Source: Ophelia neglecta
Lineage: Eukaryota
DNA length: 64,000 bases
Assembly: GCA_965285935.1 (NCBI GenBank)
Contig: OZ260666.1
Location: 69,316,001 to 69,380,000 of the forward strand
Reading direction: 5' to 3'
The position numbers and the translations under genes were made by a program. Shown piece after piece: positions 8,541 to 57,370 of this stretch (its first letter is position 1; each line of letters begins with the position of its first letter). The notes beneath the pieces are model-generated. The model searched no databases. It saw only the letters and a list, made by a program, of their open reading frames with translations, and had not been told where the DNA came from.

Positions 8541-8754
8541 CAGTGGCGGATTCAGGGGGGGGGGGGGCAGGGCAGGGGCCCCGGCCCCTCCTTTTTGCCA
8601 AAAAGTGGGCCTGGAACAAGGCCCATTTCAGGACCCACGCAAGGTGGTTTCAGAGGGTTCGGAACAGGGACAATCCAGACCTTGCCTTGTCAGGCTTGTA
8701 AAATTTGCCCCTCACCCCCACCCCCTCCTTCCTGAAATTCTGGATCCGCCACTG
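8541..8754 (+). mobile_element. CAGTGGCGGAT-ended MITE (hAT/Tip100-like termini), 5-bp TSD GGCTG
   Basis: TIR CAGTGGCGGATTCAG / CTGGATCCGCCACTG. GGCTG lies on both sides, while a paralogous uninterrupted segment near 11115 has a single GGCTG. Confidence 0.88.
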
Positions 8755-9039
8755 GGCTGCTTGTTCTTGATGATTTCGTACCTATTTATTGGACTTCTCT
8801 CGTTTATTGATTTTGCTTTCCCTGCCAGGTATCCAATCCCGTTTATCAATCCATAAGTTGGTAAATGTCGTTATTCTGGGATGTGCCATCGCCGAAACCA
8901 AATTGAGTTCGTTTCGCTGATGAGGTAAATTCATTATCGAGCACATTATATGCAGCAAATAGTTTCTAATAGCGACTCGATATCAAAATTCAAACAACCC
9001 GTCGAGGCTTGCATAATGTATTAGATGATTTAATAACTG

Positions 9040-9350
9040 GAAACTGGCAGCTTAATTCTTCAGACCTGGAAGAACGTGGTAATGAACGGGATGAACTAAT
9101 CATAGCGAGTCCATACTGGAGACATCATTGGCCATTAATTCGTTTAGTGTCCATGTTAACTGATATTAACAAGTTGGTCAATGGCATTTTCGGGTCGAGT
9201 TTAGATACTCTAATAGGAAGCCCAGTGCAGCCCTGGTCGGAATTGATGGGAACAAACTTGGGTACATTCTACAAAGCCAGGATGCTATTGCAAACGCCAC
9301 AAGTTGCTCGCCGAGTTATTGACCAGCAAGTAGTATCCATTAGTAGTTTC
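9040..9350 (-). pseudogene. Decayed Penelope-like reverse transcriptase fragment
   Basis: Manual minus-strand translation across stops and frameshifts gives VNNS...SILAL*NV/PSLFPSIPTRAALGFLLEYL and INGQ*CLQYGLAMISS. These match Penelope RT motifs (SxDVxSLFxxIP; FxGxxYxQxxGxAMGS) in the correct order. Confidence 0.55.
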
Positions 9351-10829
9351 CGGTATTAATGCCCTTCACTATCACTTTCTGTTTGCTAATGCTTTATTGC
9401 CAGGAGCTTGCAGTGTTTTCTCTCTCTCTCCTCCTAAAATTTACTTGAAATATTGAACGTAAGTAACTCTGCCATGAATTCCCCAGATATATATTATATC
9501 AATCCCGCTGTTCACATCACCAAATACTTTTTTCTGATGAAACCTCTGCTAAAAATAAAATTGAATACTGTCTGAAAACCATTGGCTACCATCACGATAT
9601 AGAAAACATTTGGATAATTCCGCGGAACACTCAGACATAACCATACATCTTTCTTTAACTCTCATCCTCAGACCACCCTCGCCTGTAGCACCTGGCTGAG
9701 AAAACCATAAAATCACACCTTTTCCAAATCTCTCCATATTTGACCAGTCTGATACAAAACTGTGGGTATCATTTTCTTCGCTAAAAGCCCGAATGTTCAT
9801 TCTTGGCATTCTCACTGACTATTGAGAGGCCTAATCGCTCCTGTAGCAATTCAACCCCTACCTACCCATTTGATCAATTTTCAATGTGGATGGGCAGTTA
9901 CCGGCAAGGTTTGTATTGTGAGATTTGGTCCGTAAATGACCTATTTGCGTGTTTTGTGGTTGACCATCACTGACAACTCGTTTAAAGTTCTGTTTTTATC
10001 ACTAACACCTGTCTAGTCAACACAGGAAAGTCCAGGTGCCGGTCACAGATTTAAAGGAAGTTGGCCAGTGGTCTATTGAAGTAGTTTGTACCCTTACTGT
10101 GACCCCACGGCCGGCACTCACACTTCGAAAAAATTCTATGCAAGGGATATTGCACTTTTTTAAAGCTACACAGAGGTGTTAAAATGAACCACAGGCGAAT
10201 TTGTTTTAATCACTTTAAGGAGCCCAGTTTCTTAACCTGTTGATCATGAACGCCCAACCGAACTACATGTCTAGATTGTAGTGGGCCTATGTTGCGAATG
10301 AGTTTAATATTTCCATCCGAAGGTCTGACATTTATTGGAGCCATAACTTAGCAGGTGTAATACCTTTTTTATCATTACCCACAACACACTGCTGCATTTG
10401 ATAACAGTGTGCCCAGGCTTATCTAATCAATGTTTAATATTAACGTTAACCATTTAAGATCAATAAATGTATTATATTATTTTTTTTAATTTAATTGACA
10501 AACATTCTTTTAAGTGTATATAGAATTGCTTGCTGCCCGGTCAGTTTCAAAACAGCGATGTTACCGTTTTCCCGATGCATTCTCATAGGGCCCAAAAACA
10601 TTCATCTTAAGGAACATATGTTAGTTATGAGGAAGGAATATGTATCGCAGTGGGCATGGTTTCTCATGGTTCGAACTGTATAATAGAAGGTTTATACAAA
10701 TACCCATTGTAATAAGAAATCATCAAATCCTGGACTGTTTTCTTCAACTTGAACGACTTCATTTATTAACATTAGTCATATGTTTACTAGGGATGAGATG
10801 TTGAATTATGTTTGGTTACTTCTGATCCG

Positions 10830-11140
10830 AATATAGCGTAACTTTGGTCTAGTGTTTATTAAGAATATTTCCCTTTTAGTCTCTAAAATCATGAGAGAGC
10901 TTAGACCATCAACTAACACCATCTCTTATGGTATGTTTCATATAAGTCTTGCGTTGAAAACTAACCGGTTTAATTCGTGCTCTGACTCGCATCATGGGAA
11001 ACTGTTAACTATACTTCTTATTGCAAGTGTTACCAATATGATATTTTCATTTCTATTTGCATTGCAAGTTAATTTACTGTTTGGGAGGCTGGGGATTGTT
11101 GTATGGTGGCCTTTGGCTGCAGGTTCCTGGTGATTTCGCC
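10830..11140 (-). pseudogene. Repeat segment, possibly a Penelope GIY-YIG endonuclease remnant; paralogs at 8405-8780 (direct) and ~8200-8250 (inverted)
   Basis: Shared GACTCGCATCAT...ATTGCAAGTG...TTTGGGAG...TGGCTGC...TGATTTCG sequence. Minus-strand fragments TCN..NII..TCNKKY and ILETKREIFLINTRPKL only weakly resemble GIY-YIG. Confidence 0.35.
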
Positions 11141-12964
11141 TGATAAAATAGACTATTCACGATAGATTGTTTTGTTTTGTCTGTCGTGTATCCAATCTCA
11201 TTATTATGTCTTGCATGCTCATAAAAACAGCAGCTGGTATCAGATGTGGGCGTTATTTTACAAGTTACCATATTGGGCCGACTATTTGCAAGCTCATATG
11301 AAACAACAATAACCAGGGAATGTTACCCTAAGAGCTGCCATATTCCGTCATGCAGGAATATGCTTAATTGTCCAGAAATGATGACATTTTAGCTGCTCTT
11401 AGTCAAATCATTAGTCAAGATTTGTCCAGCAAATAAATCAGATGACCTTATCCCCGGGGCCTCTTTCCTTGTGAGAAGCCACAAACGCTCAAGCTTGCAT
11501 TTACTTGCTCAAAACGAAACATCGGTATTTTGCTAGCTCTTAAGGAAATGTCCATTGCTCAGGTACCTTCCGCTATGAGCAACCACCCCGGTGTATATTT
11601 TCCTCGGAACTCTCTCGTACTTTTTTCCGCGGAGTAATGGCTCCTCGTTTACCGAGGTTATTCTGAACTTTAGATAACAGAGAGAATAAATAGCAGAGGT
11701 TCAATATTTATTGGGGTAAACTTTGATCAAGCTATACCAATATGAAAAAGCCTAGTGAAATCTGACACCTTACATGTGTATGTCAATCACTCATATATCT
11801 TTATAAGGATTTTCCGCGGAAAGTTCGGACGCCCGGCCCACCAAGGTTTATTAAGTGTTAATTTGTTCGTGGGGAAACGGCATTAGTTTAGGAATACGAT
11901 TGCCGAAGAGGAAATAATTCTTATTTGGGCATATATATTAACCCAAATAGGAACTTGCTTACATTTCAATCAGAATATTAAGGAACAGAATATAAATTCT
12001 AGCATTCAGCCCTCGGCCGAGGCAAAATTGCTATACATGCAACTAAAGCTGAGAGACTGTGGTATAGGGAGTTTCTACTGGATTGTTGTATTGTTAGGGG
12101 TGTCGAGACTGGTATATATAGATATGATTATTTTCAATGAAGTCATCGTAGACTCGTACATTGGACAGTCGTTGTAGAGATACATTATGGCATCGGGAGA
12201 AAATAATGCAATGCAATTAATACATTAAATACTCGAAGTATTCGCAATTCACTGGACAGCACACCAAAACATAGACCCCATATGTCAACTGGCACTCTTA
12301 TCAGCATATACACCTATTATATCCTACACTGCAATATTATAGTTAATTTTATGTATTTAAAGAGCTTTTTTGATAAAGAGTAGATATATATAGGAATATA
12401 TCTGAAGATCACCTCATTTCCACAAGTCTTATGCTATCGAAGGCTAGCATAAACGACATTCCTAGCATAACGACACAATGTCTGAAATATACACCCCGGT
12501 AACCATAGCGACACAATTGTCTCTTTAGTGAACTCGAAACGCCTGCAAAATGTATGATAAGTCGATAACAATGAATATATGATTACCGGGCGAGGATCCT
12601 GTGTGACCTGGACCGCGGCCAGGCCATGGTCGGGTGACACAGACGGTCCAAACAGATAAGGGGTGTGTTTCTTCGTAGTGGAACACGCCTTCAAGTATAT
12701 ATATACATATATATATGTATTTATATAACATTAATCATCCATATTATAATAATATAGCTAGGAATGACACCCACATATCATGTCCCGCCCTCAATACGCT
12801 TATCTATCACAAACATAAGTTGAGGTTTTGTATACCAATAGATTTGTTTACAAGTTGAACGTTAGTTAGAGACGACATGAGATGAACTATTGCGTCCCTA
12901 TTTTTGTATACTTGAAATCAAAAAGGTCACCCTGGAATAGATACAAAGCAGAAATAAGACTAAA

Positions 12965-13891: not shown

Positions 13892-15563
13892 CATTGGCGG
13901 ATCCAAATATGAGGGGGACTGATAGAAGAAGAGGTGGCTGAATAGAGGAGCCTGATAAACGAGAATTCCGGATAAAGGAGGGGACTTCATAGAGTAGGGG
14001 GTCCGAGAGACGAGGGAGCCGCAGGATGGGGGTCGGGTAGAGGAGGGGATGGAGAGAGGAGGCGATGGATAGAGGAGGGGCTGAATATAGAGGAGGAAGG
14101 GGCCGGATAAACGAGGAAGCCGGGTGGAAGAGGGGACTTCATATAGGAGGGAGTCCGAAAGAGACTAGGGGGCCGCAGGATGGGGGTCGGGTAGAGAAGG
14201 GGAAGGAGAGAGGAGACGATGGATAGAGGAGGGGCTGAATATAGAGGAGGAAGGGGCCGGATAAACGAGGAAGCCGGGTGGAAGAGGGGACTTCATATAG
14301 GAGGGAGTCCGAAAGAGACAAGGGGGCCGCAGGATGGGGGTCGGGTAGAGAAGGGGAAGGAGAGAGGAGACGATGGATAGAGGAGGGGCTGAATAAAGAG
14401 GAGGAAGGGGCCGGATAAACGAGGAAGCCGGGTGGAAGAGGGGACTTGATAGAGCAGGGGGTCCGAGAGAGACGAGGGGGCCGCAGGATGGGGGTCGGGT
14501 AGAGGAGGGGAAGGAGAGAGGAGACGATGGATAGAGGAGGGGCTGAATAAAGAGGAGGAAGGGGCCGGATAAACGAGGAAGTCGGGTGGAAGAGGGGACT
14601 TGATAGAGCAGGGGGTCCGAGAGAGACGAGGGGGCCGCAGGGGGTCGGATAGAGAAGGGGAAGGAGAGAGGAGGCGATGGATAGAGGAGGGGCTGAATAA
14701 AGAGGAGGAAGGGGCCGGATAAACGAGGAAGCCGGGTGGAAGAGGGGACTTCATAGAGCAGGGGGTCCGAGAGAGACGAGGGGGCCGCAGGATGGGGGTC
14801 GGGTAGAGGAGGGGGTGGAGAGAGGAGGCGATGGATAGAGGAGGGGTTGAATATAGAGGAGGAAGGGGCCGGATAAACGAGGAAGCCGGGTGGAAAAGGG
14901 GACTTGATAGAGCAGGGGGTCCGAGAGAGACGAGGGGGCCGCAGGATGGGGGTCGGGTAGAGGAGGGGAAGGAGAGAGGACACGATGGATAGAGGAGGGG
15001 CTGAATAAAGAGGAGGAAGGGGCCGGATAAACGAGGAAGCCGGGTGGAAGAGGGGACTTCATATAGGAGGGAGTCCGAAAGAGACGAGGGGGCCGCAGGA
15101 TGGGGGTCGGGTAGAGAAGGGGAAGGAGAGAGGAGGCGATGGATAGAGGAGGGGCTGAATAAAGAGGAGGAAGGGGCCGGATAAACGAGGAAGCCGGGTG
15201 GAAGAGGGGACTTGAAAGAGCAGGGGGTTCGAGAGAGACGAGGGGGCCGCAGGATGGGGGTCGGGTAGAGAAGGGGAAGGAGAGAGGAGGCGATGGATAG
15301 AGGAGGGGTTGAATATAGAGGAGGAAGGGGCCGGATAAACGAGGAAGCCGGGTGGAAGAGGGGACTTGATAGAGCAGGGGGTCCGAGAGAGACGAGGGGG
15401 CCGCAGGATGGGGGTCGGGTAGAGGAGGGGAAGGAGAGAGGAGGCGATGGATAGAGGAGGGGTTGAATATAGAGGAGGAAGGGGCCGGATAAACGAGGAA
15501 GCCGGGTGGAAGAGGGGACTTCATAGAGCAGGGGGTCCGAGAGAGACGAGGGGGCCGCAGGGG
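13892..15563. repeat. 154-bp purine-rich satellite (~10 units, runs into a gap), preceded by a CATTGGCGGATCC TIR-like end
   Basis: CCGGATAAACGAGG recurs at 14103, 14257, 14411, 14565, 14715 (one 150-bp unit), 14869, 15023, 15177, 15331, 15485. The plus strand is strongly G/A. Confidence 0.95.
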
Positions 15564-18049: not shown

Positions 18050-18273
18050 AAATATCTGTTCTGATTTGCCAGCCTGCTGGCACATCTAAGAGCAACCAGC
18101 AGCATATTTCGCTGCTCCCGAGCAGCACATACAGTACATTTTACAGTAATATGTCGACCACATATACGTGATGGCAACCAGACAAGAAGTTTCTCTGCTG
18201 ATCTGTTCTTGAGTTTTTTGCCAGCCAGATGAAAGTGCCACCAGAACAGATATTCATCAGAACAGTTTATTGG
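18050..18273. mobile_element. Degenerate MITE-like repeat (ATATCTGTTCTGA / CAGAACAGATAT inverted ends); homolog at ~52878-52960
   Basis: Shared TTTTGCCAGCCA...CAGAACAGATATTCRTCAGAACAG...TTGGG sequence. Confidence 0.5.
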
Positions 18274-20467
18274 GTGCGTTCGTCTGCCTATAGAGGCTAG
18301 TATTAGAGCATTCTATAAAGAATACATGATAATAATGACAAGTTCCACTGGGATTATTCAACTACCCTCTAATTCTGAAAAGTGAAACCCCTCCTAACCT
18401 CTATCCAAATAAGGGATATTCCATTAGAGGGAGTGAAATAACCACCTCCATCCACTAACACTGGTATTTGTACCCTCACCCAACCCCGATCCCCTCCCTC
18501 AGCCTAACTCTATACTAACGTGTATGCTAAAAAACGCAGGGCACACACTATACGCTGGTCAGTAATCAGGAAAAGGTGGGTCAGTATTTTTGGAGTTGTT
18601 AATAAATAGGGGTCAATTATCAACGCCTCCAGCTGAGGCCCTGTGAGTAACGACTTTAGAGCGTGCCTGCTCAGAATACAACAAGCCACGTCAATGTTTT
18701 AATTAACCATAGTTTCATTCTTGAAGCTGCGCATCTGAAATAAAGGATATGTGTGAACAATTACGGTGACGTCTAGTATATAATATACCGTTACAAAGAC
18801 CGTTACAACGATTGTCTGGATCTTTGAACTATGGGCTAAAAGGTATTATAGCCAATCTTTAAACGACAGGCTAAGGTATTATCTCCGATCTTTAAACGAA
18901 AGGCTGGTGTGTAGCCGATCTTATATATAACCTGTGGCAATGAGTGTTTCAAAATTTACCAACGCCGGGTCGGTTATTATAGCGGATACGGTATCTCGCC
19001 GCTTGTCATGGAGCATCCCGTACTTTAAGTAATCTGGCCGACATTTCGTGACTTATCACGTAACAACACCGGCAAATTGGCGTATCTCAACCCTTGAGAT
19101 CTGAGCGCAGTGATCTTACCTGCTAGTATTGTGTGTTTTGATCGCAATGAGTGGCAAATTGATCAATTGTGGACGTTTTTTAGTTTCTGATATTAAATTC
19201 CGCCTTATCATAGAATCAGTCGGCGTGGGAAACTCTCCCCAGGCCATGGCAAAGGTGGGTGATAAATTAAAGCAATTTATTCATAATGCTAATATTGAAG
19301 AACTTTTACCAAAAACTTACCTGACGTGATAGCTATGAATATGAATGATGTATAATTTGATATTTATGGCGGCAGGCTTATTAAATGAAATTGTACTCGT
19401 TAAATGTATCCTATTTACTATAAACTGGAAACTTTTATAAAACTTGTTCACAAAAATTGCATGTGCCTATATATATTTATATATACATATATATATATAT
19501 AAATATATATGATTATTTATATGAATGTGGTATATTTTCTAAGCAATCCAACGTTGCCTGCATGTTGCTTTTATCACCAAAGTTTAAGACCGTAGTGAGG
19601 AGGTTATTAAGGTTTTTCTTTAAACTTTGCAGGAAGTCTTATCATAAATTATGTTTATGTTATCATATTATTTTGCCTTTTTTGTACACTAGGTTTAATA
19701 CTGACTGGTGTAGCAGTGGAGGTTATGGGTGAGGGGGGGGGAGGGGTAACCTTGGGAGGGGGGGGCTATTAAGGGTAAGGGGGCAGTGTGCCGAGGGCTG
19801 TTGTGGATGGGTCATAGAGGGGAGGTAATCCGTGGGGGGGGCTATTATGGGCAAGGGGCAGTGTGCCGAGGGCGGTGTGGATGGGAGTGGGAGGGGGAGA
19901 GGGTCTATTGCGGGTAAGGAGGCGGAGGAGGTGGTCCCTTACTTTGTGGTCCCTTCTTTCCTATTGTCCTTTTGACAGTTTTGGGTTAGGGTTATGGTTG
20001 GGGTTATCGACTCCAGCGTATTATCAGTGTTTCCCTTCCGAGGCGGTTCATGCAGAGGGCGGAGCTTACGGCAAGTAGCAGTGTAGCCTATCCGACCCAC
20101 GACACAAACCCTAAATCAGCCCCTTATTGAAAATATTACTGTATCGTTGAGTTGCGCGGAACAAATTGCGTTGAAGGCAGACAGGTAATAAACCTAGCTA
20201 GTCATATCCCGCCCTGGGGCCTTCAGGTTATGGGAATATCGTGTTGTCTCAATCTTACATGATAATTAGAAGTACAGTAATTAGAAAGAGACAGACACCC
20301 AGGAGTGTATCTTCAAACAAATACCTGCGAGCTGGCTAATTTGTGTTTTTAAACACTTCATCTGCGTAATAAGTTTCATAAGTTTCATGAGTTTCGGTAA
20401 TTAGTTTTCATCGAGGAACTTTAAACATCAGGAAAATGTGTACCGATTTCAAGATAGTACAATAATA

Positions 20468-20635
20468 CAGTGGAACCTGTCTAATCAGGTCAGTGAAGGG
20501 ACTGGAAAAAACTGACCACATTATTTAGTTGACCATAATAGGCAGGTCAGTTAAAACAGGCATAAATAGGGACTGGGCGACCTTAGTGGGCAGGTGACCT
20601 TATTACACAGGTGGCCACAAACACAGGTTTCACCG
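20468..20635. mobile_element. Tc1/mariner/pogo-type MITE, family B
   Basis: TA|CAGTGGAACCTG...CAGGTTTCACCG|TA. Confidence 0.85.
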
Positions 20636-20894
20636 TATTTGTAGGTTTACCTGCTTGTTATTATATCCAGGGAAAGGTATCTATTTAATCATATAGGGCT
20701 AAGTTTGCTAATGGCATGCATTGTTTAATTTCGCGAAATTAAACTATGCGCGAAGTTACCTAACTTTACACTGTACATGTGTTATACTGAAAAGTATGCA
20801 CATGCTTGAACAAATAAAAAAAGCTAGGAAACTTATATAAGGTGATACTTCAAAAATTCATATTAAATTAGCCAATTAATTATTTTCCGTGCAG

Positions 20895-22008: not shown

Positions 22009-22459
22009 TCTAGATCTTTGCAGATTGTTTGACCTAGGTAAATACTCTGGTTTAATTCAAAGTTTTATATAACTATAGTTGACAGGGATAAATACATTTG
22101 CCTTGAATTAGGAAAACAAACACCGTAAGTATTCAACCGATTTGAATTAATATATGTAGGCCTCGGATCAGAACAATGTCTTGTTTGTCCTAACAGATTT
22201 ATAGGCTCCTCGATGCCAAGTAACCAAATCATGTGTAAGGGGGTCATCGACTTAAATCTCACATTAATTGCCTGGGATTCGAGTTAACCCTCGGACCTGG
22301 TTTATTTTATGTCTATTGACACTTTGAGATATGTGACAGGTCCTTGTAGGCGGCCATGGTGTCACAAGAAGTATTGTAAAACATGAAATAGGCCGTTTTG
22401 GTCGTCTGCTTCTCAGATCCAAGTCAAGAGGGTGTGACCTCCAGGGGGATGATGGTCCC

Positions 22460-23150
22460 CTGACAGGGGAGTAGGCCCATCGAGGGTTTATATAGGTCCT
22501 TTGACAGGGGAGTAGGTCCATCGAGGGTTTAAATAGGTCCTCTGACAGGGGAGTAGGTCCATCGAGGGTTTATATAGGTCCTCTGACAGGGGAGTAGGCC
22601 CATCGAGGGTTTATATAGGTCCTCTGACAGGGGAGTAGGCCCATGGAGGGTTTATATAGGTCCTCTGACAGGGGAGTAGGTCCATCGAGGGTTTAAATAG
22701 GTCCTCTGACAGTGGAGTAGGTCCATCGAGGGTTTATATAGGTCCTCTCCCAGGGGAGTAGGTCCATCGAGGGTTTATATAGGTCCTCTCCCAGGGGAGT
22801 AGGCCCATCGAGGGTTTATATAGGTCCTCTGACAGGGGAGTAGGTCCATCGAGGGTTTATATAGGTCCTCTGACAGGGGAGTAGGCCCATCGAGGGTTTA
22901 TATAGGTCCTTTGACAGGGGAGTAGGCCCATCGAGGGTTTATATAGGTCCTCTGACAGGGGAGTAGGTCCATCGAGGGTTTATATAGGTCCTCTGACAGG
23001 GGAGTAGGTCCATCGAGGGTTTATATAGGTCCTCTGGCAGGGGAGTAGGTCCATCGAGGGTTTATATAGGTCCTCTGGCAGGGGAGTAGGTCCATCGAGG
23101 GTTTATATAGGTCCTCTGGCAGGGGAGTAGTCCCATGGAAGGTTTATATA
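22460..23150. repeat. 41-bp minisatellite (~17 units)
   Basis: Unit CTGACAGGGGAGTAGGTCCATCGAGGGTTTATATAGGTCCT. Confidence 0.97.
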
Positions 23151-24495: not shown

Positions 24496-25280
24496 AAGTT
24501 ATCAGCCAATCGGGTTCAACTAACTAGTAAATGACCGCTCTCTTCCCCATCCTACCCCAGCGCCCGAGGGGCGGGAACCCCCGGCAGAATGAATAAATGG
24601 TCACTGAATCATTTTCGGTGGTGCTGTCTATTTTCACTATCGTGATCTGTCAGTGGAAAAGAACTCAGTCAAGCTATATATCTGAAGTGTAAGATATAGT
24701 AGGTGTATATTCTGATGAGAGTACTGTGTTATATATTTGATTCATGTTTTGAAGCTGTCTAGTGTATTGAGAACACCTCGAGTATTTATTCATGATGTTT
24801 ATTTATTTGTATTCTTTTCTCCCGATGCCATAATGTATCTGTTCTATAACAGTCCAATGTACAAGCCTATGATGACTACATTGAATAAAGAAAATACATA
24901 TATAAATTGACTTGTGACTTAAAATCGGCCCTCTATTCATGGAGAGGGGTGTTGATTTCTGGGATTCATAGTTGGATCTGGGATCTCCTCTTAAAAGACT
25001 GAACAAATAGAGGGAAGTGGTCAGAATCACGTGTGAGGCTGGGGCTTCTAGTTCTAGGTGGATTTCCACCGAATTAACTGACAGTTTTTTATTAATGGCT
25101 TTGTTTTGTCTCCAGTTTTTACCAGGGCGGAAAGGGGACTTCTCCGAGAGGCTGCCTTGACCAGTCTGAAACCGCCCCCTTCCCCGCTCCCTCATGGTAC
25201 GGACTTTACCCTTATTGTTTGGTAAACTCGCGTCATTTAGAACGGGGCTGTGTTACAGCAAGGTACACAACACTGTCATG

Positions 25281-25471
25281 CAGTGGCGGATTCAAGGGGG
25301 GAGCAGGGTCCCCCCCCCTCTTTTTTCCATAAGTGGGCCCGGACCAGGGCTTATTTCTTGACCCTCGCAAGGTGCTTTCAGAGGGTTGGTAACGGGGACA
25401 ATCCAGACATTTGCCTAGTCAACCTTTAAAAATTTTGGGCCCTCCTTCCTGAAATTCTGGATCAGCCACTG
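25281..25471 (+). mobile_element. CAGTGGCGGAT-ended MITE with 13-bp flanking duplication
   Basis: CAACACTGTCATG (25268-25280) / CAACACTGTAATG (25472-25484); body homologous to the 8541 copy. Confidence 0.88.
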
Positions 25472-29445: not shown

Positions 29446-29495
29446 TGTAAAAAGGTGCCTGAGTAATAACGAAGAAACTGGTATCAAATCTACTA

Positions 29496-37565: not shown

Positions 37566-37924
37566 CCCCGTGTCCCCTGGTTCTATAAGGCCCTACCCAT
37601 TAACAAGGGGCTTCTGTCCCCCGGTCCCCCTGGAGCCACCATGAAGTTCACAATAATAGCTATATCCATTTGTAACCCACTGCTAGGCCTGAGCATTGTC
37701 TCTCACACCGGTGAATCTCTGTTTTCTACAGAACATTAAACTTTGTTTTTGTAAGTTATTAACAAGGTACCAGGTATCTCCAGCCGCAGGCTCTATATCT
37801 CAGGAAATTAAGGGCTATTCTTACAGATTTATGTATCTTGCTCATTGGGCCTGTAACAATAAAACTGTTGCGTTCCGCCCCATTACTGGGGGGCTGGAAT
37901 GGTTTATATGCACAGACAGGATAT

Positions 37925-38115
37925 CAGTGGCAGATCCAGGATTTCAGGGAGGGGGGGGGGGGGCAAAATTGTTCAAGGCTGACAAGGCAAATGTCTGGAT
38001 TGTCCCTGTTTCCAACCTTCTGAAAGCACCTTGCGTGGGTCCAGAAATAGGCCCTGATCCAGGCCCACTTTTTGGCCCCTTGCCTCCCCCCCCCCGCCCC
38101 CTGCATCCGCCACTG
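37925..38115 (-). mobile_element. CAGTGGCGGAT-ended MITE, 6-bp TSD GGATAT
   Basis: GGATAT|CAGTGGCAGATCCAG...CATCCGCCACTG|GGATAT. Confidence 0.88.
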
Positions 38116-43700: not shown

Positions 43701-43787
43701 ATTACAAAATTCTGACCTTGAATAATAACGTGAAGTTGTGGTCATGGTCACAGAATAGTCCTCCAAGTCAGTGATAGTGCTAGCCAT
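40725..43787 (-). CDS. LINE ORF2: apurinic-like endonuclease + reverse transcriptase, 1020 aa
   Basis: APE motifs LNIRSL, ETWL, GGGLAIY, YRPP, GDMNID, TRVT..IDH, SDH. RT motifs YRPISILPTFSKIFE, QYGFR, DLTKAFDTI, GVPQGSILGPLFF, FADD, KFLGI. C-terminal CNINSCYIC. No RNase H seen. Confidence 0.97.
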   Translation of the reverse strand: MASTITDLEDYSVTMTTTSRYYSRSEFCNLKNENDSLLILNLNIRSLLNKKHEIESLLQEMAMNNKVLDVLTLEETWLTNENEQLAALEGYTSIFKHRPAKIGGGLAIYVRNGLNYTVRDDVSIDHEYYESLFIEINCTSLRPKLLIGTFYRPPNHSNITQFTNYIETTLNKIEYGNIDCILTGDMNIDLLNTTNHRSSSEFIDALTSLSYIPLISHPTRVTPSSATLIDHLFLKFNPNLQYTAGTILSSISDHYPNFVYLHKTCTSKQPTPKLYTYRKYNPRNINNFTQSMYLQNWEKVIQDCKDNNTNKAYANFQQILKQTMDKHIPEVTRKFNKYKHKDKPWITHAIIRSIQTRDILSKRRNKSKQKPNYDEINAHFLEYRAILDKVIKQAKAIHWDIRFKQSYNNIKQTWMNIKEILGSQRSNNIQTLFYDRDNHKITDPSLIANHFNTFFTNIGEEITNNLSQNTNINYKSFMNDPLVNSIFLNEATAAEIKKIAIHMKPKSSCGFDNQSPKFIKQILPSVIFPLLQIFNSMIKTGEFPEDMKISKVLPFYKSGDLTNVTNYRPISILPTFSKIFERLIYNRLYNFFTKQNIFFPSQYGFRKHHSTEHATLELIEHITQKLDQKKHVAAIFIDLTKAFDTIKHTILLQKLFHYGIRGTPHNLLKSYLSNRSQYVLFKQKSSELLKQKVGVPQGSILGPLFFLIYINDIYKSLNTTSLPILFADDTSVIIHNKHLERLYNNINHELSNIQIWIKSNFLSLNIKKTKFMIFKNSYNPPDQIPDLFRVKIDNTIIEQVSTFKFLGIHIDEHLNWKTHINEKCKKVSQIIGLMNRLKQCLPTYILKIIYNSLIQPHLFYGITAYYNCTNFSTCNRLFLLQKRAMRTISKSWYLAHTEPLFKSLKILRLNDLYFVKALKIYFNIIQSKCPNFTKQSVELVDQGKKQYYTRNNDVIVRKPFRTNIIKQCLWFKLLSVTNQILHHYKIPLSQSYNYKAYFINAYTNTCNINSCYICNKTLLV

Positions 43788-43890
43788 TAGTATATTGATT
43801 GAGACATGATCTATACTACAATATTGTCAATGTTTCGATAACTAAAACATATTCTCCATTTTTTCAAAAATATATTCTCCATTTTTATTA

Positions 43891-45096
43891 TCATTTCTTA
43901 TGTAGTTTCGCAGTGTGATCAATAGGTGTAATATCCTTTCTTTTAGGTTTTCTCACTCCAGTTGGCGTCACAAAATCTGTTATGTTTGGCTGACCGGGAT
44001 CTTTGTTTTTTTGTTTCTTTTTGGACTTCGTCTTCTTGGCTTTTGTAGGAGTTTGGTTCATGGTATCTGTGGTTTCCTTTCTTTCATTGTTTACCTTTGT
44101 GGTAAATACAGGTTCTGGTAAATCAGTGACATTGTTTACGGTGATACTGGTATCTGGGTCAGGGCCATCGGGTGCAGATGGGCAGGATTCAGCGTCAGAA
44201 TCTGTGTCACTGTCATTGGTACCCGAATCGTTGGTTAGGGAATGCTCCTCGGCATCATCCGTGGTGTGTTTGTTCTGAGACACTAGTTGAATATCGTCAG
44301 TTTTCTCGTTGACATTTACTGGGTTCTGATTTTTGTGTGGCATGGAGCTGTTCGGGGTGTGGAAACTCCGTTCCAGTTCATCTGTGTGGTGGTCACTTCC
44401 ATGACCCCTTTCACCACAGATTGGACAAGTCATCCTTGACTTAAGGATTGGACAAGCATCAATGTGATGGTCGTCTCTACAGTACCTACAGTTTATAGGC
44501 TGGTTGTCATGATATACCGTGATTCCTAGTTGAATCAGGTTAGATGGCTCACATGGGTCGGCCAAATCATAGTTGTAGTAGCGTGGAATTGGTTTAATGA
44601 TAGTCTTGGCATACACATATCTGTGTCCAGAATACAATGTTTTAAAAGCACTGCTGCTTGTAATTTTCACTGTATGGTGTTGAACATGGGACGCCAACTC
44701 AGCATGGGTAGAAATCCAGTTTTCAACTTCTTGGTTTGATATGTGATATGGTATTCCGTGAATAGAAATACGTTTGTTTTTTACAGATGACAAAGGGTTG
44801 GACTTGAAGAAGTCATTGATCTGTCCCAAAGTGTTCCTGAGGTGGACAACCTGCATGTCGAGGATGTTTTGTTTATTCACCAGGTCGGCTGTGTACACAA
44901 TCCAAAACTTCCTAGGTTGAATATATTGAACCCCCAAAATTGCGTTTGGAGGGAATTCATTGTGCCTCTCTCTTGCCTGTGCCAAAAGAGACTCGGCAAT
45001 CTCCAATTCAGACATTCCTGGAAGTCTGACCCCTGATATGGTTAGCCACAGTGATTTATTTTGCAGCGCACTGTAATCATTATTACTAGTAGCCAT
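43891..45096 (-). CDS. LINE ORF1: RRM-like domain + two zinc knuckles, low-complexity acidic then basic tail, 401 aa
   Basis: Lies directly upstream of ORF2. RRM-like RISIHGIPYHISNQEV and SGHRYVY segments. Knuckles CRYCRDDHHIDAC and CPICGERGHGSDHH. D/S/T-rich segment followed by a K-rich (NLS-like) C-terminus. Confidence 0.9.
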   Translation of the reverse strand: MATSNNDYSALQNKSLWLTISGVRLPGMSELEIAESLLAQARERHNEFPPNAILGVQYIQPRKFWIVYTADLVNKQNILDMQVVHLRNTLGQINDFFKSNPLSSVKNKRISIHGIPYHISNQEVENWISTHAELASHVQHHTVKITSSSAFKTLYSGHRYVYAKTIIKPIPRYYNYDLADPCEPSNLIQLGITVYHDNQPINCRYCRDDHHIDACPILKSRMTCPICGERGHGSDHHTDELERSFHTPNSSMPHKNQNPVNVNEKTDDIQLVSQNKHTTDDAEEHSLTNDSGTNDSDTDSDAESCPSAPDGPDPDTSITVNNVTDLPEPVFTTKVNNERKETTDTMNQTPTKAKKTKSKKKQKNKDPGQPNITDFVTPTGVRKPKRKDITPIDHTAKLHKK

Positions 45097-46432
45097 TGTA
45101 CCAACTCTTCTACAGTAGGTGCAGGTGACAATACAATGTATATAGCCAAAATCAGTCAGGCGTGAATCAAAGTTCCAAGTAAAAAGATAAGACTCTCACC
45201 GAAATGCCTGAAAAGTCCTGTGACAAATGTTCATTCCTGTCAAAGGTTCGGAGTCCTTGTTCATTCACGGCAGAATTGACGTAGTTTAATGTTATAATAA
45301 CTAATATCGTAGGTGAAAATTGATGTTTTTGTGTAGTTGACCATAACAGCTGGTGCAGTAGGTACAGGGTGTCTCCCTGCATGTCCTTCTTCAATCTGGA
45401 CGAAATTCATCTAGCTATCTACCCACTGTGCACAGACTAAACTATCTATGTTAAGTATTGTAGTTAAAAATTTACACATGAATTAGAGTAAAAGAACAAT
45501 CTTTTTTGTCGTAGTGTACTTTTTGTACCAATGAATAAAATATATATACATACATATTGAGACGTGAGATGTGCCAATTTTAGTATCCTTTTCTAAGCCG
45601 GTTACTTACCTTAGCTCTAACCCTACGTAAGTTACAATAAAAATGAAATTTACTAAGAAAGTTCCTTGCAATTTACTATAAGTTCCCCATCTTCATGGTG
45701 TGAGTAGTTCACATTGAATCATGCCAATGGTATATCAAGCTGTTTAGGTGTGTATAAAGCCTTCAATATGATAACTCTCCTTGGACCCTCGAGGGCATTA
45801 GAATACAGCAGACGAGTTTGGGGTAATTTATTTAAATTTCATTATTGACAGCCTTGGATTGTCGTACATCGGCTTTATTAGTCAAGGCGACTACCCACAA
45901 ATACTCTTAAACAAACCGATAACTATGGGAAAGTCTACTTTTAATCAATTTGGGATTAACTTGTCAAAGCCTTGTTTGTGTGTGAGGTACATAATATTGA
46001 CTTGTATATTTGCTTGTCCCTGAAGACTAAGACGATATAAAACCATAATTAAATAGGCTGATTAGACAAATAAGACCACTAAGAAATCTGGTGGCACGGA
46101 ACAGCGTTCTACGTTTGTTTTTAGAGGTTATGACCTTAGACACATCTTTACTGTGCGTTTGTCTAGCCGAGAGAAAGGTAATTATCGCTTAGTTTGGCGC
46201 GAATTACTGTAATTATCGTAGTTTGGCATGAGGAGCCTTATTAACATTAGATGCAGGTGTGGGCTTCACTTCTACCTGCAGCTATTTTACTATTTAAATA
46301 TCTGGTTAGAAAGACACATTTTATCTAGCATACAGCAGGTTGTGGACAGAGCAACAGGGGCTGGTCTTTTATTGGAAAAAGGCTACACTTTTATGTAAAG
46401 GTTTGGGAAGGCTATCCCCCCCCCCCCTCATG

Positions 46433-46592
46433 AGACCACCTCTATATTCAGACCACCTGCCAATTCAGACCACTCATCAGAAAACCTTACTGTATACTTT
46501 AAATGTAAAATAACCTGTCTAATCAGACCACCTCCATATTCAGACCAGTATTTTGAAGTCCCTTGGTGGGTCTCAATTTACAGGTTTCACAG
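46433..46592 (+). mobile_element. MITE family A, left end truncated
   Basis: GACCACCTCTATATTCAGACC...CAGGTTTCACAG|TA. Confidence 0.85.
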
Positions 46593-46708
46593 TACTGTGT
46601 AGACAATAAGTTGTTTTAGTATACACATGGAAGTGTTGACTAAACCTATTCAGGAAATCTTAAAACTCAACAATCTCATTGACCCAAAATCATACACTTT
46701 GCTATATA

Positions 46709-46886
46709 TAGTGAAACCTGTTAATTAAGACCACCAAAGGACCTGGAAAGCACTGGTCTGATTTCTGAGGTGGTCTGTTTACACAAGTTATTCTATATAG
46801 AAAGTGTATACCATGGTCCTAATATTAGTGGTCTGAATTGACAGGTGGTCTGATTATAGAGGTGGTCTTTAAGCCAGGTTTCACTG
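46709..46886 (-). mobile_element. MITE family A
   Basis: TA|TAGTGAAACCTG...CAGGTTTCACTG|TA. Confidence 0.9.
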
Positions 46887-47109
46887 TAATCTGTAGTGTG
46901 GCGTCTTACATTCCCAGGAGTTAACACTTTTTATTTTAGTGGCCATTTTGCCCCTTTTTTGTCAATTTATGGTTGATAATTGCTCCATTATCTCTTGTTT
47001 ATCATTACTACTTGCTTTTATAGATTCCATTAGTGTCTGATGAAAGCATTATTCTGACATTAACAAAACAATACACATTAAACAATGCGAAAAAAAGCCA
47101 TTAAAATGT

Positions 47110-47944: not shown

Positions 47945-48917
47945 AGACAAGATTTCTCTGACTAATAACCAACTTACGTGTAACTTAACCGGCAATGTAT
48001 GCTAAATTTTGACCACAGTAACTTAGTCAAATCTGTGAGTTGATGTATCGCACTCAATGTAAGCGAAAGCTGGCCACATTGGCGAAATTCCTAGAATTAT
48101 CAAGTTCATCTTTTGAGGCGTCAATGACATTGACATGACATTGTACACGAGTCATGTACATGACTCGTGTAGCCGACCTTTTTGTAAACTGTCCCAAGAC
48201 CCCCACCTGAGAAGTAAAAATTATCAACCACCCTCCATGCAAAAGCCGACCCCTTTCCCATCTCTGAAGAAAACCCAATTCCCAATCAGATGCTAACTAG
48301 ACTTGACACTGTTATACAAGAAACGTCAAGCTATCGAACATGTCCATAGCATGAGTGGGTCATACATCTTAGTCACGTGTAGGGGGTAGAAAGCTGAATT
48401 ACTGTTTAGACTACAGGTTCGATTCTAGTGACAGGCAGATTACCTTGAACGTCTATGTGGAAAAAAGTGGTATCTCGTGGAACTCGTGGCGCCACCTGTT
48501 TACCAATTATGTGTGCTAATGTTAGATGTGGATTAATAATTGTTATTTTTAAAGCTTGATAATCTATACGACAGGATATATAATGGCGGCTAGGTCAGGG
48601 GTCAACATTAAGGGTTCGAGATTATAGTGTCAGGGGTCATCTTAAGGAAACTAGGGCTAGTTTCCGGAGTTTGTATTAAGGTACTAGCCTTAAGTCGTAT
48701 GGTCATGATTAACGAACGAGGGACAAGAGGGCTCAAGTAAAATGAAGAGGTAGGGTTTGGGGTCAGATGTACCTGTTTATGGTGCAGTGATTGTTCTGGT
48801 CAGTTCAGGTGATAATGGTTTGCGATGCTCCCACCAGCTTGCTAAGTTCTGTATTCAACTAACATGGGAAAGGGTGATCTGTCTTTTATTAAAGTATCTA
48901 TGGGTCTAAATGGTATA

Positions 48918-49095
48918 CAGTGAAACCTGCCTTAAAGACCACCTCTATAATCAGACCACCTGTCTATTCAGACCACGAATATGAGGACCGTCATGAATTC
49001 TTTCAATGTTAAATAACCTGTCAAAACAGACCACTTCTGAAATCAGACCAGTACTTTCCAGTCCCTTGGGTGGTCTTAATTTACAGGTTTCACTC
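48918..49095 (+). mobile_element. MITE family A
   Basis: TA|CAGTGAAACCTG...CAGGTTTCACTC|TA. Confidence 0.92.
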
Positions 49096-49769
49096 TATTT
49101 GCCTAGGACCTCCAGACCCCCAATGCGGGGGGTCCCTGGGAGGGTGGTTTAGCAGCCTTGTACGTACAATGGGCGCTCTGCGGCAGCGATAAACTCTATT
49201 TTAGAAATAAAAGGTTTTTAAGTGGCTCAATACCGGGCTGTTAGTTGACCCAATACCCTCGACACCCAGCCTGTCGTCTGGTGATAAATTATTTCACGCT
49301 TCACGTTTAATTGATTCACTCCTATGTATCACTTTCCGCCATTTTGTATTTTTTAACAATCAAGTGTTGAAGTTGACGAAAATATATTTCTTTTGCATAA
49401 GCTATCAGCAGGTATCATCTTGTTCCCGCCTCAGAGTGGGAATCTTAAATTCCGCGTCGTTGTAGAGCTCTGCAGGGGGTCGAAATTCAATGTCAGATTG
49501 GAAAAATAACCTTACCTTCGTGTTGTCTTCACCTTTTAAGGTTTTCTATCGCTTAATTAGCTCTGTAATTCAAGCTCATCCAGGGGCCCTTCAACCAAGT
49601 AGGTTTTCCTTGTTGCCTTTATGATTTTGCCAAAGCGGCGTTTTTCAACCAATTCAAACTTTTAAATGGCATATAATTTTATAAGAATTTAATATGATCG
49701 TTTTTTGGGAAAGGCCATTTTTATATTACATTTGTTTTATGATATAAAGGTTCTCTCTGGTCATAAGAG

Positions 49770-51530: not shown

Positions 51531-51624
51531 AGCTTAAGAAACAGGCCAATGCTGACGTTTGGTATATATCACTCCGCCAAGCAGCATGTCGTTTGTAAAA
51601 GCCAGTACACAAATGCTTAAGTGT

Positions 51625-51985: not shown

Positions 51986-53411
51986 TCTCCTCTTCTCCAA
52001 GTTTTAAAGAAGAAAGAAAACTTAAATACTTTGGAGATGTATCTGTTGATTCTTCTAAACAAACCCGTTCTTGGTTATTCCGGGTAGAGCTTGAATTAAT
52101 TATGTTTACCTCAGGTTTGTCTTCTTTCACCATGAACACTTATTATTGTACCGTTATGATCTGTCCATAACAAGGGTGGAATTTATGTTAAAACTGTGTT
52201 TATCGTAAAAACAATCTCTGGTAAGGCGATAAACCAGACATCTTCCGAGTTGTCATCGGCACACTCCGTATTTGGACCCTGACATGTGGCTACACGACTG
52301 TTTTATTTCAAAGCGGTTGATCCGGGCGTGGTTCCTTAGATGGACTTGTGGGTGATCTCTCGATGAAACTTCCCCTGTCATTTACTATGCAAATCCACGT
52401 CAATCAATGCCTACAGGGTAAACTCGGGCAATTTTGCCCACCGTTTAATTTCGCGCGGTGAAAAAATATATAGTATAATCTCATTTCCTGCGCAGTATAA
52501 AAAGGATTCTATTAGATACGGGCGATTGAGCTAGTTTTTTTCTTTCAGACATTTTAGCTGTTTTTATGCGGCCTTTCTATAAATAGTAGTAGGTACAAAA
52601 AGGACACTTTAAACTGACGCAGTCGCAGGTGTATTTTAGTACAGTATTATTCCCCGCAGGGGTTAGCCTTATTCCGCGCACTGTGAATGAGGCCACTTAC
52701 TATGTGGTATTAAACAGCGCACAAAATTAGCCGATTTCACCATTGATTTGTTTAGCTTGATAAGATTTATAAATAAATTTCCGGGATTCTGTTTACCTTG
52801 CAGTGTTGCTGAGGTGTTCCAAGAGTCATTAAATGGGAGGCTGTGATGGTTGGTAGCCTATGAGGGTTTTGTCAATATGGGTTTCTGTTCTTATTAGGTT
52901 CTTTTGCCAGCCAACCAATATTGGCATCAGAACAGATATTCGTCAGAACAGATCTTTGGGGACCCCCAATACATGTGAAAGAAATTGAGTCAAGTATTTC
53001 CATCGGCCTGTAGATCAAAAATATCAAACACTTTTTCCTATTACCATTCAGTTATACACAAGAGTCGGGGAAACACTGGAGATGGCTAATCATAGTTCTT
53101 GTAAGAAAACAAATTTAAGCGTGACAATGCAAATGATATAACTGCGACTATTTCCCAGTTTTGCAAAAAGAAAAAAGTGCGCTGGTATTTCTGTCTTGTT
53201 CCTGCGTAATAAGTATAATATCAATGGATTTCACTTCACATCAAGCACCGTTGGTTTCCTTTCTTGAATTTTCATTTGTTAAAAGTCCAAGATGTGTTGT
53301 ATGATTTGTGACTTGCGATTGCTTTAAGGTTTCTGGTTTGGTGTCTCTCCCAAGGGGAGGTTTAGGGGCCTAGGAAAGAGCAGAAAGACGGCTCAGTTTG
53401 CACCGGAGGTA

Positions 53412-53589
53412 CAGTGAAACCTGTAAATCAAGACCACCCAAGGGACTGCAAAATACTGGTCTGAATATGGAGGTGGTCTGATTAGACAGGTTATTTTACC
53501 TTCAAAGTATGCAGTAAGCTCATCTGATGAATGGTCTGAATTGACAGGTGGTCTGAATACAGAGGTGGTCTTTGAGGCAGGTTGCAATG
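53412..53589 (-). mobile_element. MITE family A
   Basis: TA|CAGTGAAACCTG...CAGGTTGCAATG|TA. Confidence 0.9.
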
Positions 53590-54340
53590 TATATGTTTTT
53601 ACCGCGAACATTGGAAGGGCAAGAACGCTGGGAAAAGAATAAGACGCTGCTTGTACTGTACGGAATTGTACGGAATCGTACGGAATCGTACGGAATTGTA
53701 CGGAATTAAACGAGGCCTTAAAGTACCCGACATAAAAGGCTAGGCCTATCTCTTTCCGAAAATGATAAATATTGTTTAATTTCCTTTCGCTTAAGTATAG
53801 GGCAATCTGTATCACAGTATGGGGGGGGGGGGGTACACTGTACGTGCACTAACTAATAGTAACTGTTAAACCATTGAAAACAATAAGCTGTATGGGTAAT
53901 TTTCAGTCACGTGACTGGGATAGTGCTGTTTTTTCTCAACATGTATTTGAGCTCACTGCACGTAATTGCAGAGCTGTACACTGTACGCCCTACTGTGTGT
54001 ATATGAGAGCAGTATATAAGCTGTCTACCCCACACCCCACCCCTCTCTACCCTCCAACCCTTCTCTATTTTTTTTGACACACACGACGACACCCTGGCTA
54101 GGATATCGCAGAGGATCGTGTCTATTCATCTGCTTGTCATTTCACTAATGAATGCCACTAATGATAAATGAGACAAAGAGCATTCCTCGCCCCATTTTAC
54201 TTCTAACAGACCTCCAGGACCTATCACCCGTCTGTCCCCAGCCATATACCAGTTCACGGGAGGGACGCAGGGTTAAAGGTCACACTAGATGGTGGTGAGG
54301 ACGCCACACTTTCTTGATACATGATAATAATATAATAATA

Positions 54341-54518
54341 CAGTGAATCCTGTGAATTAAGACCACCCAAGGGACTGGAAAATGCTGGTCTGATTTTAGA
54401 GGTGGTCTGTTTAGACAAGTTATTTGACATTAAAAGCGTACATCATGGTCCTCATATTTGTGGTCTGAATTTACAGGTGGTCTGATTAAAGAGATGGTAT
54501 TTAAGGCATATTTCACTG
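54341..54518 (-). mobile_element. MITE family A, inserted in an (ATA)n tail
   Basis: TA|CAGTGAATCCTG...TTTCACTG|TA. Confidence 0.9.
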
Positions 54519-54520
54519 TA

Positions 54521-54570
54521 ATAATTTATTGATTTATATATCGCCTATCCAAGGCTCTAGGCGCTGTACA
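54521..54570 (-). mobile_element. L2-type LINE/SINE 3' terminus
   Basis: Minus strand reads TGTACAGCGCCTAGAGCCTTGGATAGGCGATATATAAAT...AATAAATTAT, with a CGCCTA/TAGGCG stem and a (TAT)n tail split by the MITE. Confidence 0.55.
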
Positions 54571-55167: not shown

Positions 55168-55762
55168 TGTTACAGGGGTCCGCATTCGTGGCTAGGGGGG
55201 GACCCCGTGGGAGGTTAGAGATGGTCCCCGTGGGGGTTAGATGGGGTCCCCGTGGGAGGTAGCCGGATTAAGAACACCAGAGAGATCCTTTTTGCACAAC
55301 TTTATTACGTGATGGAGAAATCCAGATTGAGTTTCCTGTGACGTGACCGCAGAGGGTGACGGGTCTTAAGGGGGAGGACGACAGGGGGATCCGATAGTCT
55401 CTTTACCGGATGAACCTCTTCTCGATGGCGCTGCCCTCTACACGCGCTACACTGATCTGGGACATTGGTCTGAGGCCCTATCGCCCCTCCATGAGTAGAT
55501 CTTAGTTCATAGGGGCCCCCTCTCTACGGGGGGAGGGAGAGACCTCTCCCTGAGGGGCTGAGGGTTTAGCTGTGGGTATAAGCTCCCAGACCCCTTTTTT
55601 TAAGTGACTGACAGACTCAGGTTTGGTTTCCGACCATATGACCTCCGAGGTTGGCGAGGTTGTCGAGGAGATTGATGGCGCTCCTTGTGGGATTATCCGG
55701 CGTTCTTGTCAGGGTGGCCTGTGTCTTTGGAGGCCGTGTAAAGGGGGCCTCAGCAGTTTAGA
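55168..55762 (-). mobile_element. Probable solo LTR (Gypsy-like, 4-bp TSD)
   Basis: Starts TGTTAC and ends TTTAGA (one change from TTTACA). TCTA is duplicated at 55164-55167 and 55763-55766. Minus-strand AATAAA at 55301-55306 sits ~135 bp from the TAACA end. GC-richer than the flanks. Confidence 0.55.
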
Positions 55763-55766
55763 TCTA

Positions 55767-55944
55767 CAGTGAAACCTGCCTTACAGACCACCTCTATTAT
55801 CAGACCACCTGTCATTTCAGACCACTTATACGAGGACCATGATGTATACTTTCAATGTTAAATAACCTGTCTAAACTGACCACCTCTGAAATCAGACCAT
55901 TATTTTCCAGTCCATTGGGTGGCCTTAATTCACAGGTTTTACTG
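55767..55944 (+). mobile_element. MITE family A
   Basis: TA|CAGTGAAACCTG...CAGGTTTTACTG|TA. Confidence 0.92.
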
Positions 55945-56419
55945 TAATAACAAAAGTGGGGTCTCCTTATAGTCATAAGGGTAGGGGTTGGGGACGCCGT
56001 CCCCCGTACCTCCTCTTCCCGTCCTCGTAATACAATATTTGATATGCATTTTCCACCGAATCTTACGTGGGCGTTATTTTATACCCCAAGGAGCAAACAT
56101 CGTGGAGGTAGGGGGTGTGCGGGGGTGGGGGGATGGATCCCTCAAAACCGCCCTAGCCGGTCAATCCATCAGTGGTAAAACCGGACACTTACGGTCACAT
56201 TTCTAAAGTTCCTCAGAAATTGGATTGACCCCTTGAAATCAAACTAAGTTAGATTTTGGGTATGGGGTATTTGGAGGGGGGAGGAAGGCTCAACCCTTCT
56301 TCGCATATTTGAATACTCCTTTGCCAGAGTTTACCGGGGGAGGGGCTGTTTTTTTTCTCACTACTGGTAAGCTCGCTCTTCCCCGAACACCTGGGCTGGA
56401 GGGGAGGGGGGGGGGAAGA

Positions 56420-56580
56420 ACTCTTAACCGTTGCCCTAATTTGTCGGAGTTGCTCTGAGCTTGCCTGGGGGCAGAACCCTTACCCGTAGCCCTAATTTGC
56501 CGGCGTTGCTCTGAGCTTGTTTGGGGGCAGAACCCTTACCCTAGCCCTAATTTGTCGGAGTTGCCCTGAGATTGCCTGGG
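56420..56580. repeat. ~55-bp tandem repeat, 3 copies
   Basis: GCCCTAATTTGTCGGAGTTGCTCTGAGCTTG..GGGGGCAGAACCCTTAC. Confidence 0.85.
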
Positions 56581-57191
56581 TGCCCGGTGACGTTGGCCAG
56601 ACCCATGTCATTGAGATATTGCCCTGGGATGCCGTGGGTGGAGGGTCCCTTCATCCCAGACGTCAGCCTGCCACTGGGTGACTGAGGGCCACCGGGCCAG
56701 TCAATACCGTCTTTGTTCTATACCACCAGTCTCACACTGCGGCAAAATTCACATCTAATCTGGCTATTCAGTTCGGTGGGAATCATATGACCTTTTTCAT
56801 CACGAATCAATCTTTGAAGTCAACTTTAAAAAATAACTTATACCAAACCGGCGGTTTGTTCAAAAACGTTATTCCTTAAATCGTTTTAGCACGAGTTATT
56901 CCGGAAATTCACGCCAAGTGATAATGTAAAACTCTTCTGTCAAAAGATTTAATTTGAACAAACGGCGATTCTTACATATTATGACAAATAAGATGTCATT
57001 CGTCAAAGCTGTTGAATAACGAGAATTTTTGTCTGAAAAAAATGGCCTTTAAACTGCTGCCTCACGACACAGTATGGCTGAAAAAGACCATAGGAGACAT
57101 GGGAATTCGTCTCGTATTTAGTAGCCATACTTCGCGCATAATTAGGGTGTTTACTGCGCGGAGTTATACGATGCGCGAACTTGTCCGACTT

Positions 57192-57370
57192 CAGTGGCGG
57201 ATCCAGGATTTCAGGAAGGGGGGGGGGGGGCATATGTCTGGAATGTCCCTGTTACCAACCCTCTGAAACCACCTTGCATGGGTCCAGAAATAGGCTCTGC
57301 TTCCGGCCCACTTTTTGGCAAAATGGGGTGGCCCGGGCCCCCTGCCCCCCCCCCCCTAAATCCGCCACTG
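57192..57370 (-). mobile_element. CAGTGGCGGAT-ended MITE, 5-bp TSD GACTT
   Basis: GACTT|CAGTGGCGGATCCAG...AAATCCGCCACTG|GACTT. Confidence 0.88.

Follow-up and report, generated by a model that had tools for sequence, protein, structure and literature searches.

Can one family of transposable elements make target-site duplications of several lengths when it inserts? The question is raised by a 64,000-nucleotide stretch of the Ophelia neglecta genome (GenBank assembly GCA_965285935.1, contig OZ260666.1, positions 69,316,001 to 69,380,000; hereafter the window), in which four copies of a miniature inverted-repeat transposable element, or MITE, are flanked by duplications of 5, 13, 6 and 5 bp. 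DNA transposons are classified by duplication length as a fixed trait, one believed to mirror the bending of the target between the active sites of the transposase and whose evolution is largely untested. Here we show that the departure of this MITE from a fixed duplication length is real and statistically solid, with a clear 5-bp mode and a tail of longer repeats, and we argue, leaning towards this explanation without holding it as settled, that the MITE is moved in trans by a hAT5-like transposase (one of the short-duplication hAT5/hAT6-like clade) with a loose stagger.

Four copies of one MITE in the window

At zero or one mismatch, the window contains eight matches to the terminal inverted repeat (TIR), which pair in inverted orientation as the CAGTGGCGGAT-type ends of all four copies (Table 1). 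The copies are 72-85% alike in pairwise comparison and carry G- and C-runs inside each end; copies 1 and 2 point one way and copies 3 and 4 the opposite way. With the same tolerance, no alternative duplication length of 4 bp or more fits any of the flanks, and 8 bp fits none of them. A paralogue of the landing site of copy 1 aligns with both flanks of that copy and has one GGCTG, so that the insertion of copy 1 must have made a 5-bp duplication. In a preliminary description, prepared from the letters of this stretch, the four homologous copies and their TIRs, the four duplication lengths with no 8-bp case, and the internal empty site near 11115 had all been noted, and each of these observations held when re-derived.

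The one empty site found among the fetched loci lies at about 18216-18274 of the window (near 18232); this repeat is the unfilled counterpart of another MITE copy, L137, and has a single copy of the 5-bp target of L137. Two paralogous empty sites therefore confirm the 5-bp length. In contigs from public runs (three contig sets from one sample) that cover copies 2 and 3, the flank continues into the element, and a joint that skips the element is absent among the matches listed, which weighs neither way.

Genome-wide spectrum of duplication lengths

The four copies belong to a non-coding, hAT-type MITE family of about 600 or more copies, some 160-225 bp long. Across the 762-Mb host genome at least 445 matches of 187-212 bp have perfect 11-bp TIRs (at least one of those listed belongs to another family), and there are at least 159 further matches of 163-186 bp. 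The family thus has the anatomy of a class II MITE, being short, non-coding, bounded by TIRs and present in many dispersed copies with target duplications. Its TIRs of 11-16 bp lie within the short range of hAT elements (10-25 bp, as in the hAT-coding elements), and its CAG(T/G)G start is common to most of the hAT-coding elements that we could bound in this genome.

To score duplications, we fetched the 40 best BLAST matches, the first 50 of the 445 places, 49 of the 60 places of a further search and 50 of the 159 shorter matches, a sample in which contigs C1 and C2 and perfect TIRs are over-represented. A filter on the internal core left 199 elements, removal of 12 duplicates left 187, and 175 of these have intact CAGTG..CACTG ends. 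Chance expectation was obtained by permutation, pairing each left flank with the right flanks of other copies.

Exact duplications of 5 bp were found in 68 of the 175 copies (0.29 expected by chance), of 6 bp in 19 (0.07), of 7 bp in one (0.01) and of 8 bp in four (about 0). Allowing one mismatch added 36 copies at 5 bp (3.1 expected), 13 at 6 bp (1.0), three at 7 bp (0.25) and a single one at 13 bp, while 31 of the 175 copies are without an assignable repeat. Lengths of 3 and 4 bp are near chance (one against 3.1 and three against 0.9 expected) and those of 9-12 bp are empty. The last 47 copies, which were fetched after the pattern had been seen, repeat the spectrum, with 16 exact duplications of 5 bp, five of 6 bp and one of 8 bp.

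Chance extension of a strict 5-bp duplication does not explain these numbers, since a repeat with fixed boundaries can reach 6 bp only in a homopolymer and since the permutation counts exclude coincidence. The outcome that would have undone the preliminary description, a single sharp mode with 6-bp cases due to chance, is accordingly not what the genome holds. Its proposal of variable duplication length stands genome-wide, with the amendment that the length is not freely variable: because the 5-bp mode takes in 68 of the 92 exact duplications, the family behaves as a hAT5-type element with a tail. The absence of 8-bp duplications, to which it had also drawn attention, is true of the window and matches the expectation from the known hAT5 and hAT6 groups; elsewhere in the genome 8 bp does occur, in four of the 175 copies. 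When the window copies are excluded, off-mode lengths make up 23 of 89 exact repeats (26%; Wilson interval about 18-36%), compared with two of four in the window, which is the richer sample. The 13-bp copy of the window, a singleton among the 175, makes the family look stranger than it is.

A canonical hAT family with strict 8-bp duplications

As a control, we scored in the same way one canonical hAT family of the host genome, with coding copies L185 and L186 and the TIR CAGGGACCGGCACGAT. Forty loci, the first unpaired matches of the family, were fetched, and seven of them lack a second end in range. Among the 33 two-ended loci, 30 have an exact 8-bp duplication, one an 8-bp duplication with one mismatch and two no assignable repeat; no other exact length was seen. 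Eleven further pairs read by eye gave eight exact 8-bp duplications, two with one mismatch and one ambiguous case. Off-mode lengths are therefore significantly more frequent in the MITE (23/89) than in the control (0/30; Fisher p=0.0009). A second MITE of the window, flanked by TA, was considered as a control and dropped, because a 2-bp duplication is uninformative.

Duplication length is independent of subfamily and age

If subfamilies of the MITE had duplication lengths of their own, clusters, divergence or phylogeny should reveal it, and none does. Two subfamily clusters have 5-, 6- and 7-bp-or-longer duplications in the proportions 50/17/5 and 62/16/5 (p=0.62), and splits into three and four clusters are likewise without a link to length (p=0.16 and 0.22). 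Divergence from the subfamily consensus is about 7% in both the 5- and the 6-bp class (p=0.81), and on a tree of the 102-column core of the MITE, length changes 28 times against a mean of 29.9 in shuffled data (P=0.20). Subfamily-specific lengths were rejected on these grounds.

The target bases themselves carry a signal in both classes. The third base outside the cut is A or T in 121 of 142 cases in the 5-bp class and in 32 of 38 in the 6-bp class, and the second base inside the cut in 103 of 142 and 32 of 38, respectively, against a background of 60%. The distance of this A/T signal from each cut is thus the same in the two classes, the pattern to be expected when each active site recognises identical features and the difference lies in the central spacing alone.

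Transposase-coding relatives

Candidate partners were sought by Pfam, where DUF4371 gave 6 matches and the hAT dimerisation domain, with 150 of 298 candidates scored, gave 149, and by protein searches and 60 regions of 10 kb. Outside the canonical group we could bound 37 elements, coding or deleted, whose transposases have zf-C17orf113 or DUF4371 together with the hAT dimerisation domain. Their duplications are of 5 bp in 13 elements, 6 bp in 16, 7 bp in one and 8 bp in two; the rest comprise one 6-bp case with one mismatch, one in a TA tract, where the length is ambiguous, and three without a duplication. In a quick tree (midpoint-rooted, with several inner forks open, one long-branch warning and broken frames read with X), the transposases of the bounded elements form one branch apart from three canonical 8-bp proteins, and elements with 5, 6, 7 and 8 bp are interleaved on it.

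Among the 37 bounded elements, the TIR most similar to that of the MITE, with 17 of 22 positions shared with MITE end B, belongs to L194, a frameshifted DUF4371/hAT-dimer transposase element on a branch with 5-bp duplications; next comes the 6-bp L178 family, with 14 of 22. Near-identical coding relatives differ in duplication length. L290 (7 bp) and L296 (5 bp) are 97% identical in DNA, and L178 (6 bp) and L239 (5 bp) 96% identical; within one TIR family L197, L280 and L281 have 6 bp and L282 has 5 bp, and L181 and L272 have 5 bp where L180 has 6 bp with one mismatch. Pairs of the L178 family read by eye gave six duplications of 6 bp and one of 5 bp.

Several of these relatives are of interest in their own right. 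L192 (2941-7379) and L193, located at C2:22.13 Mb and C8:35.48 Mb, encode a hAT transposase with an N-terminal OTU-like protease domain (PF02338, E 3.5e-5, over the cut-off); both have 5-bp duplications and both are frameshifted or interrupted near the C-terminus. Named database relatives of L192 number three, with ZMYM1-like annotation, two of them from sponge and oyster, and most others are unnamed. L182, L183 and L184 form a young 6.7-kb hAT family (99% identical proteins) with open frames of 743-773 aa and 5-bp duplications, whose ends begin with CTGCG instead of CAG. On the transposase tree the 8-bp family of L278 (3741-7002) and L284 (4937-5738) sits within a group of 5- and 6-bp families and may have returned to the canonical 8-bp length.

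Comparison with known systems

hAT5 is a group defined by 5-bp duplications (Kapitonov & Jurka 2007, Putnam 2007, via PMC12730594, PMC9004415), and PMC12730594 places it together with hAT6 (6 bp) in a Blackjack-containing lineage, with hAT7 as a separate fungal group. Our MITE resembles hAT5 in its short hAT-type TIRs and its 5-bp mode, and the same genome has 5-bp coding hATs with the most similar TIR. Compared with the published descriptions, it differs from hAT5 in that 5 bp is its mode and not a fixed length, about a quarter of its readable duplications being of 6-8 bp. With hAT6 and hAT7 it shares duplications below 8 bp, and the joint lineage of hAT5 and hAT6 has its counterpart in the clade shared by 5- and 6-bp families here; 6 bp is, however, only a minority class of the MITE (19 of 92 exact cases), and 5-, 6-, 7- and 8-bp elements interleave on our quick tree instead of forming separate groups. 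Canonical hATs (the Ac, Buster and Tip groups) have 8-bp duplications (PMC3942097). They resemble the elements studied here in their short TIRs, MITE derivatives and dimerisation-domain transposases, which the genome also has, but 8 bp accounts for just four of the 92 exact MITE cases and the canonical family that we tested is strict.

Mixed lengths are already known from other DDE groups: IS481EU is described as having several lengths within one DDE family, with copies of IS481EU-7_TV flanked by 4, 5, 15 and 24 bp (PMC10045372). IS481EU is like our MITE in that the copies of a single family have several duplication lengths, but as described there it belongs to another enzyme group, has TGT..ACA ends and takes discrete lengths of 4/15/25 bp about one helical turn apart, whereas the MITE has CAGTG..CACTG ends and steps of 1-3 bp. 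For mixed lengths within hAT5/hAT6, full-text searches turned up no account; Repbase, Dfam, subscription papers and bioRxiv supplements may hold one. Neither PMC9804982 nor PMC6004678, in which 8 or 9 bp are noted across members of hATm, has a bearing on such mixing. Other transposases and integrases also make occasional off-length duplications.

Explanations for the length spectrum

In the explanation towards which we lean, a hAT transposase would cut and paste the non-coding MITE in trans, each active site would read the same local target features, and what would vary is how many base pairs are bent from one site to the other. The complex would then capture 5 bp usually, 6 bp in roughly a fifth of insertions and 7-8 bp rarely, one enzyme type making both the 5- and the 6-bp class; the 13-bp case would likely be a rare accident of repair or recombination, added on top. 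According to structural reviews, two ends joined at spacings of 2-9 bp need different bending of the target (PMC6900584), and active-site distance and bendability are said to dictate duplication length (PMC10045372). A broader version, which we put forward more tentatively and would not yet back over its negation, is that hAT5 and hAT6 are one clade with an intrinsically loose stagger (5 to 8 bp by a single enzyme), the mode flipping between close relatives and even back to 8 bp, while canonical hATs of the same genome are strict.

Several observations weigh against a loose stagger. No coding element with the MITE's own CAGTGGCGGAT ends turned up among the hAT matches examined, which cover part of the candidates, and this keeps cross-mobilisation by several enzymes in contention. 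The branch closest in TIR (L192, L193, L305, L194 and L300) has five readable duplications, all of 5 bp (that of L194 in a TA tract), too few to show a leak, and within-family mixing among the coding elements rests on one or two off-mode copies per family. No empty site turned up among the fetched loci for any 6-, 7-, 8- or 13-bp copy. The core tree of the MITE has limited power, and the control is one family, younger than the MITE. Finally, this genome and this clade contain 5-, 6- and 8-bp families side by side, all with CAG(T/G)G ends, and cross-mobilisation by them would produce an identical spectrum, likewise without a subfamily signal.

That co-existence gives weight to a rather unlikely, although serious, alternative in which the MITE would be shared among a number of strict enzymes, moved mostly by a 5-bp transposase and occasionally by 6- and 8-bp ones with similar CAGTG ends. 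The TIR of the 6-bp L178 family is the second closest to end B, the 8-bp L278/L284 family starts with CAGTG, and 8-bp duplications of the MITE (4-5 copies) outnumber exact 7-bp ones (one), a pattern closer to a mode of its own than to a gradual tail. Such sharing, however, would require three or more enzymes to have worked on the two subfamilies in equal ratio over the same period, and past the fifth base the TIRs of those families depart from that of the MITE (9-14 of 22). Moreover, the young coding families themselves have off-mode copies, one of them of 7 bp, and the canonical 8-bp family shows no sign of being cross-mobilised by 5- and 6-bp enzymes, numerous as these are. The preliminary description had offered both of these ideas, and the flexible stagger is the better supported, with several transposases as its live rival; its third, non-canonical or retro-type integration, finds no support save possibly in the lone 13-bp case.

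It is improbable that the cut is always 5 bp and that longer repeats arise later, by strand displacement in gap repair, by an extra end base or by recombination between neighbouring insertions. Such post-insertion processes fit only the 13-bp case well: its target holds the terminal CACTG of the element, and two alleles whose insertions lie 8 bp from each other would be expected to yield a 13-bp repeat on crossing over. A carried extra base, by contrast, predicts about three non-matching offsets per match, or roughly 50 for the 19 exact 6-bp copies, against four seen among 187, and this variant was rejected. The mismatches of 14 one-mismatch 6-bp cases are spread over positions, the preference for A or T three bases outside the cut tracks the 6-bp spacing, and, although host repair applies to every element, the control is without a 9-bp class. 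The chance that the off-mode repeats are coincidental matches, or products of insertion by reverse transcription like that of a short interspersed element (SINE), is very slight indeed. Variable duplications with a simple-repeat tail are given as the mark of target-primed reverse transcription (PMC7805219). The MITE varies in duplication length, but unlike SINEs and other non-long-terminal-repeat elements it has TIRs at both ends, which are precise in 175 of 187 copies, no simple-repeat 3' tail, a sharp 5-bp mode and nothing at 9-12 bp; with a chance expectation below 0.1 for 6 bp and longer, anatomy and permutation counts together refute this reading.

This is a modest effect in an otherwise ordinary MITE. 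Even so, annotation tools that demand one length would lose about a quarter of the readable copies of the family, and near-identical members of a clade with 5, 6, 7 or 8 bp, set against a strict 8-bp family of the same genome that bears open reading frames, bring the question within reach of transposition assays and structure comparison. If a loose-stagger clade does exist, it would be a natural series for studying what sets the cut spacing of DDE enzymes and how evolution shifts it.

Other features of the window

Table 1 Coordinates of the MITE copies, their duplications and other repeats in the window
Feature	Position	Strand	Length	Details
MITE copy 1	8541..8754	+	214 bp	TIRs CAGTGGCGGAT, poly-G/poly-C arms
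Duplication of copy 1	8536..8540 (left), 8755-8759 (right)		5 bp	GGCTG; empty site has a single copy
Unfilled paralogous site of copy 1	11115..11119			single GGCTG; paralogy about 10968-11200, aligning with both flanks of copy 1
MITE copy 2	25281..25471	+	191 bp	
Duplication of copy 2	25268..25280 (left), 25472-25484 (right)		13 bp	CAACACTGT[C/A]ATG, one mismatch
MITE copy 3	37925..38115	-	191 bp	
Duplication of copy 3	37919..37924 (left), 38116-38121 (right)		6 bp	GGATAT
MITE copy 4	57192..57370	-	179 bp	short internal deletion
Duplication of copy 4	57187..57191 (left), 57371-57375 (right)		5 bp	GACTT
Second MITE family	852-1036, 24310-24503, 26623-26832, 29486-29694, 46433-46892, 48914-49101, 53409-53597, 54337-54527, 55757-55954, 57795-57982, 58091-58289			CAGTGAAACC ends
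Relative of second MITE family	1214-1388, 20462-20638, 36911-37100			CAGTGAAACC ends
Third inverted-repeat element	37346-37570, 62760-62990			begins GGCTTTGTGTTAACGG
LINE	40725-45195	-		apparently full-length
Minisatellite arrays	3650-4875, 13927-15563, 22454-23152, 28846-29446, 33249-35356			five arrays

The second MITE family is the denser one in the window, with 12 copies of about 185 bp that are mostly flanked by TA, which suggests that it may belong to Tc1/mariner. The two copies of the third inverted-repeat element are 91% alike. In the long interspersed element (LINE), a 434-aa frame without a Pfam match precedes an open frame of 1033 aa that encodes endonuclease and RVT_1 domains. The long reading frames within the minisatellite arrays are repeat artefacts.

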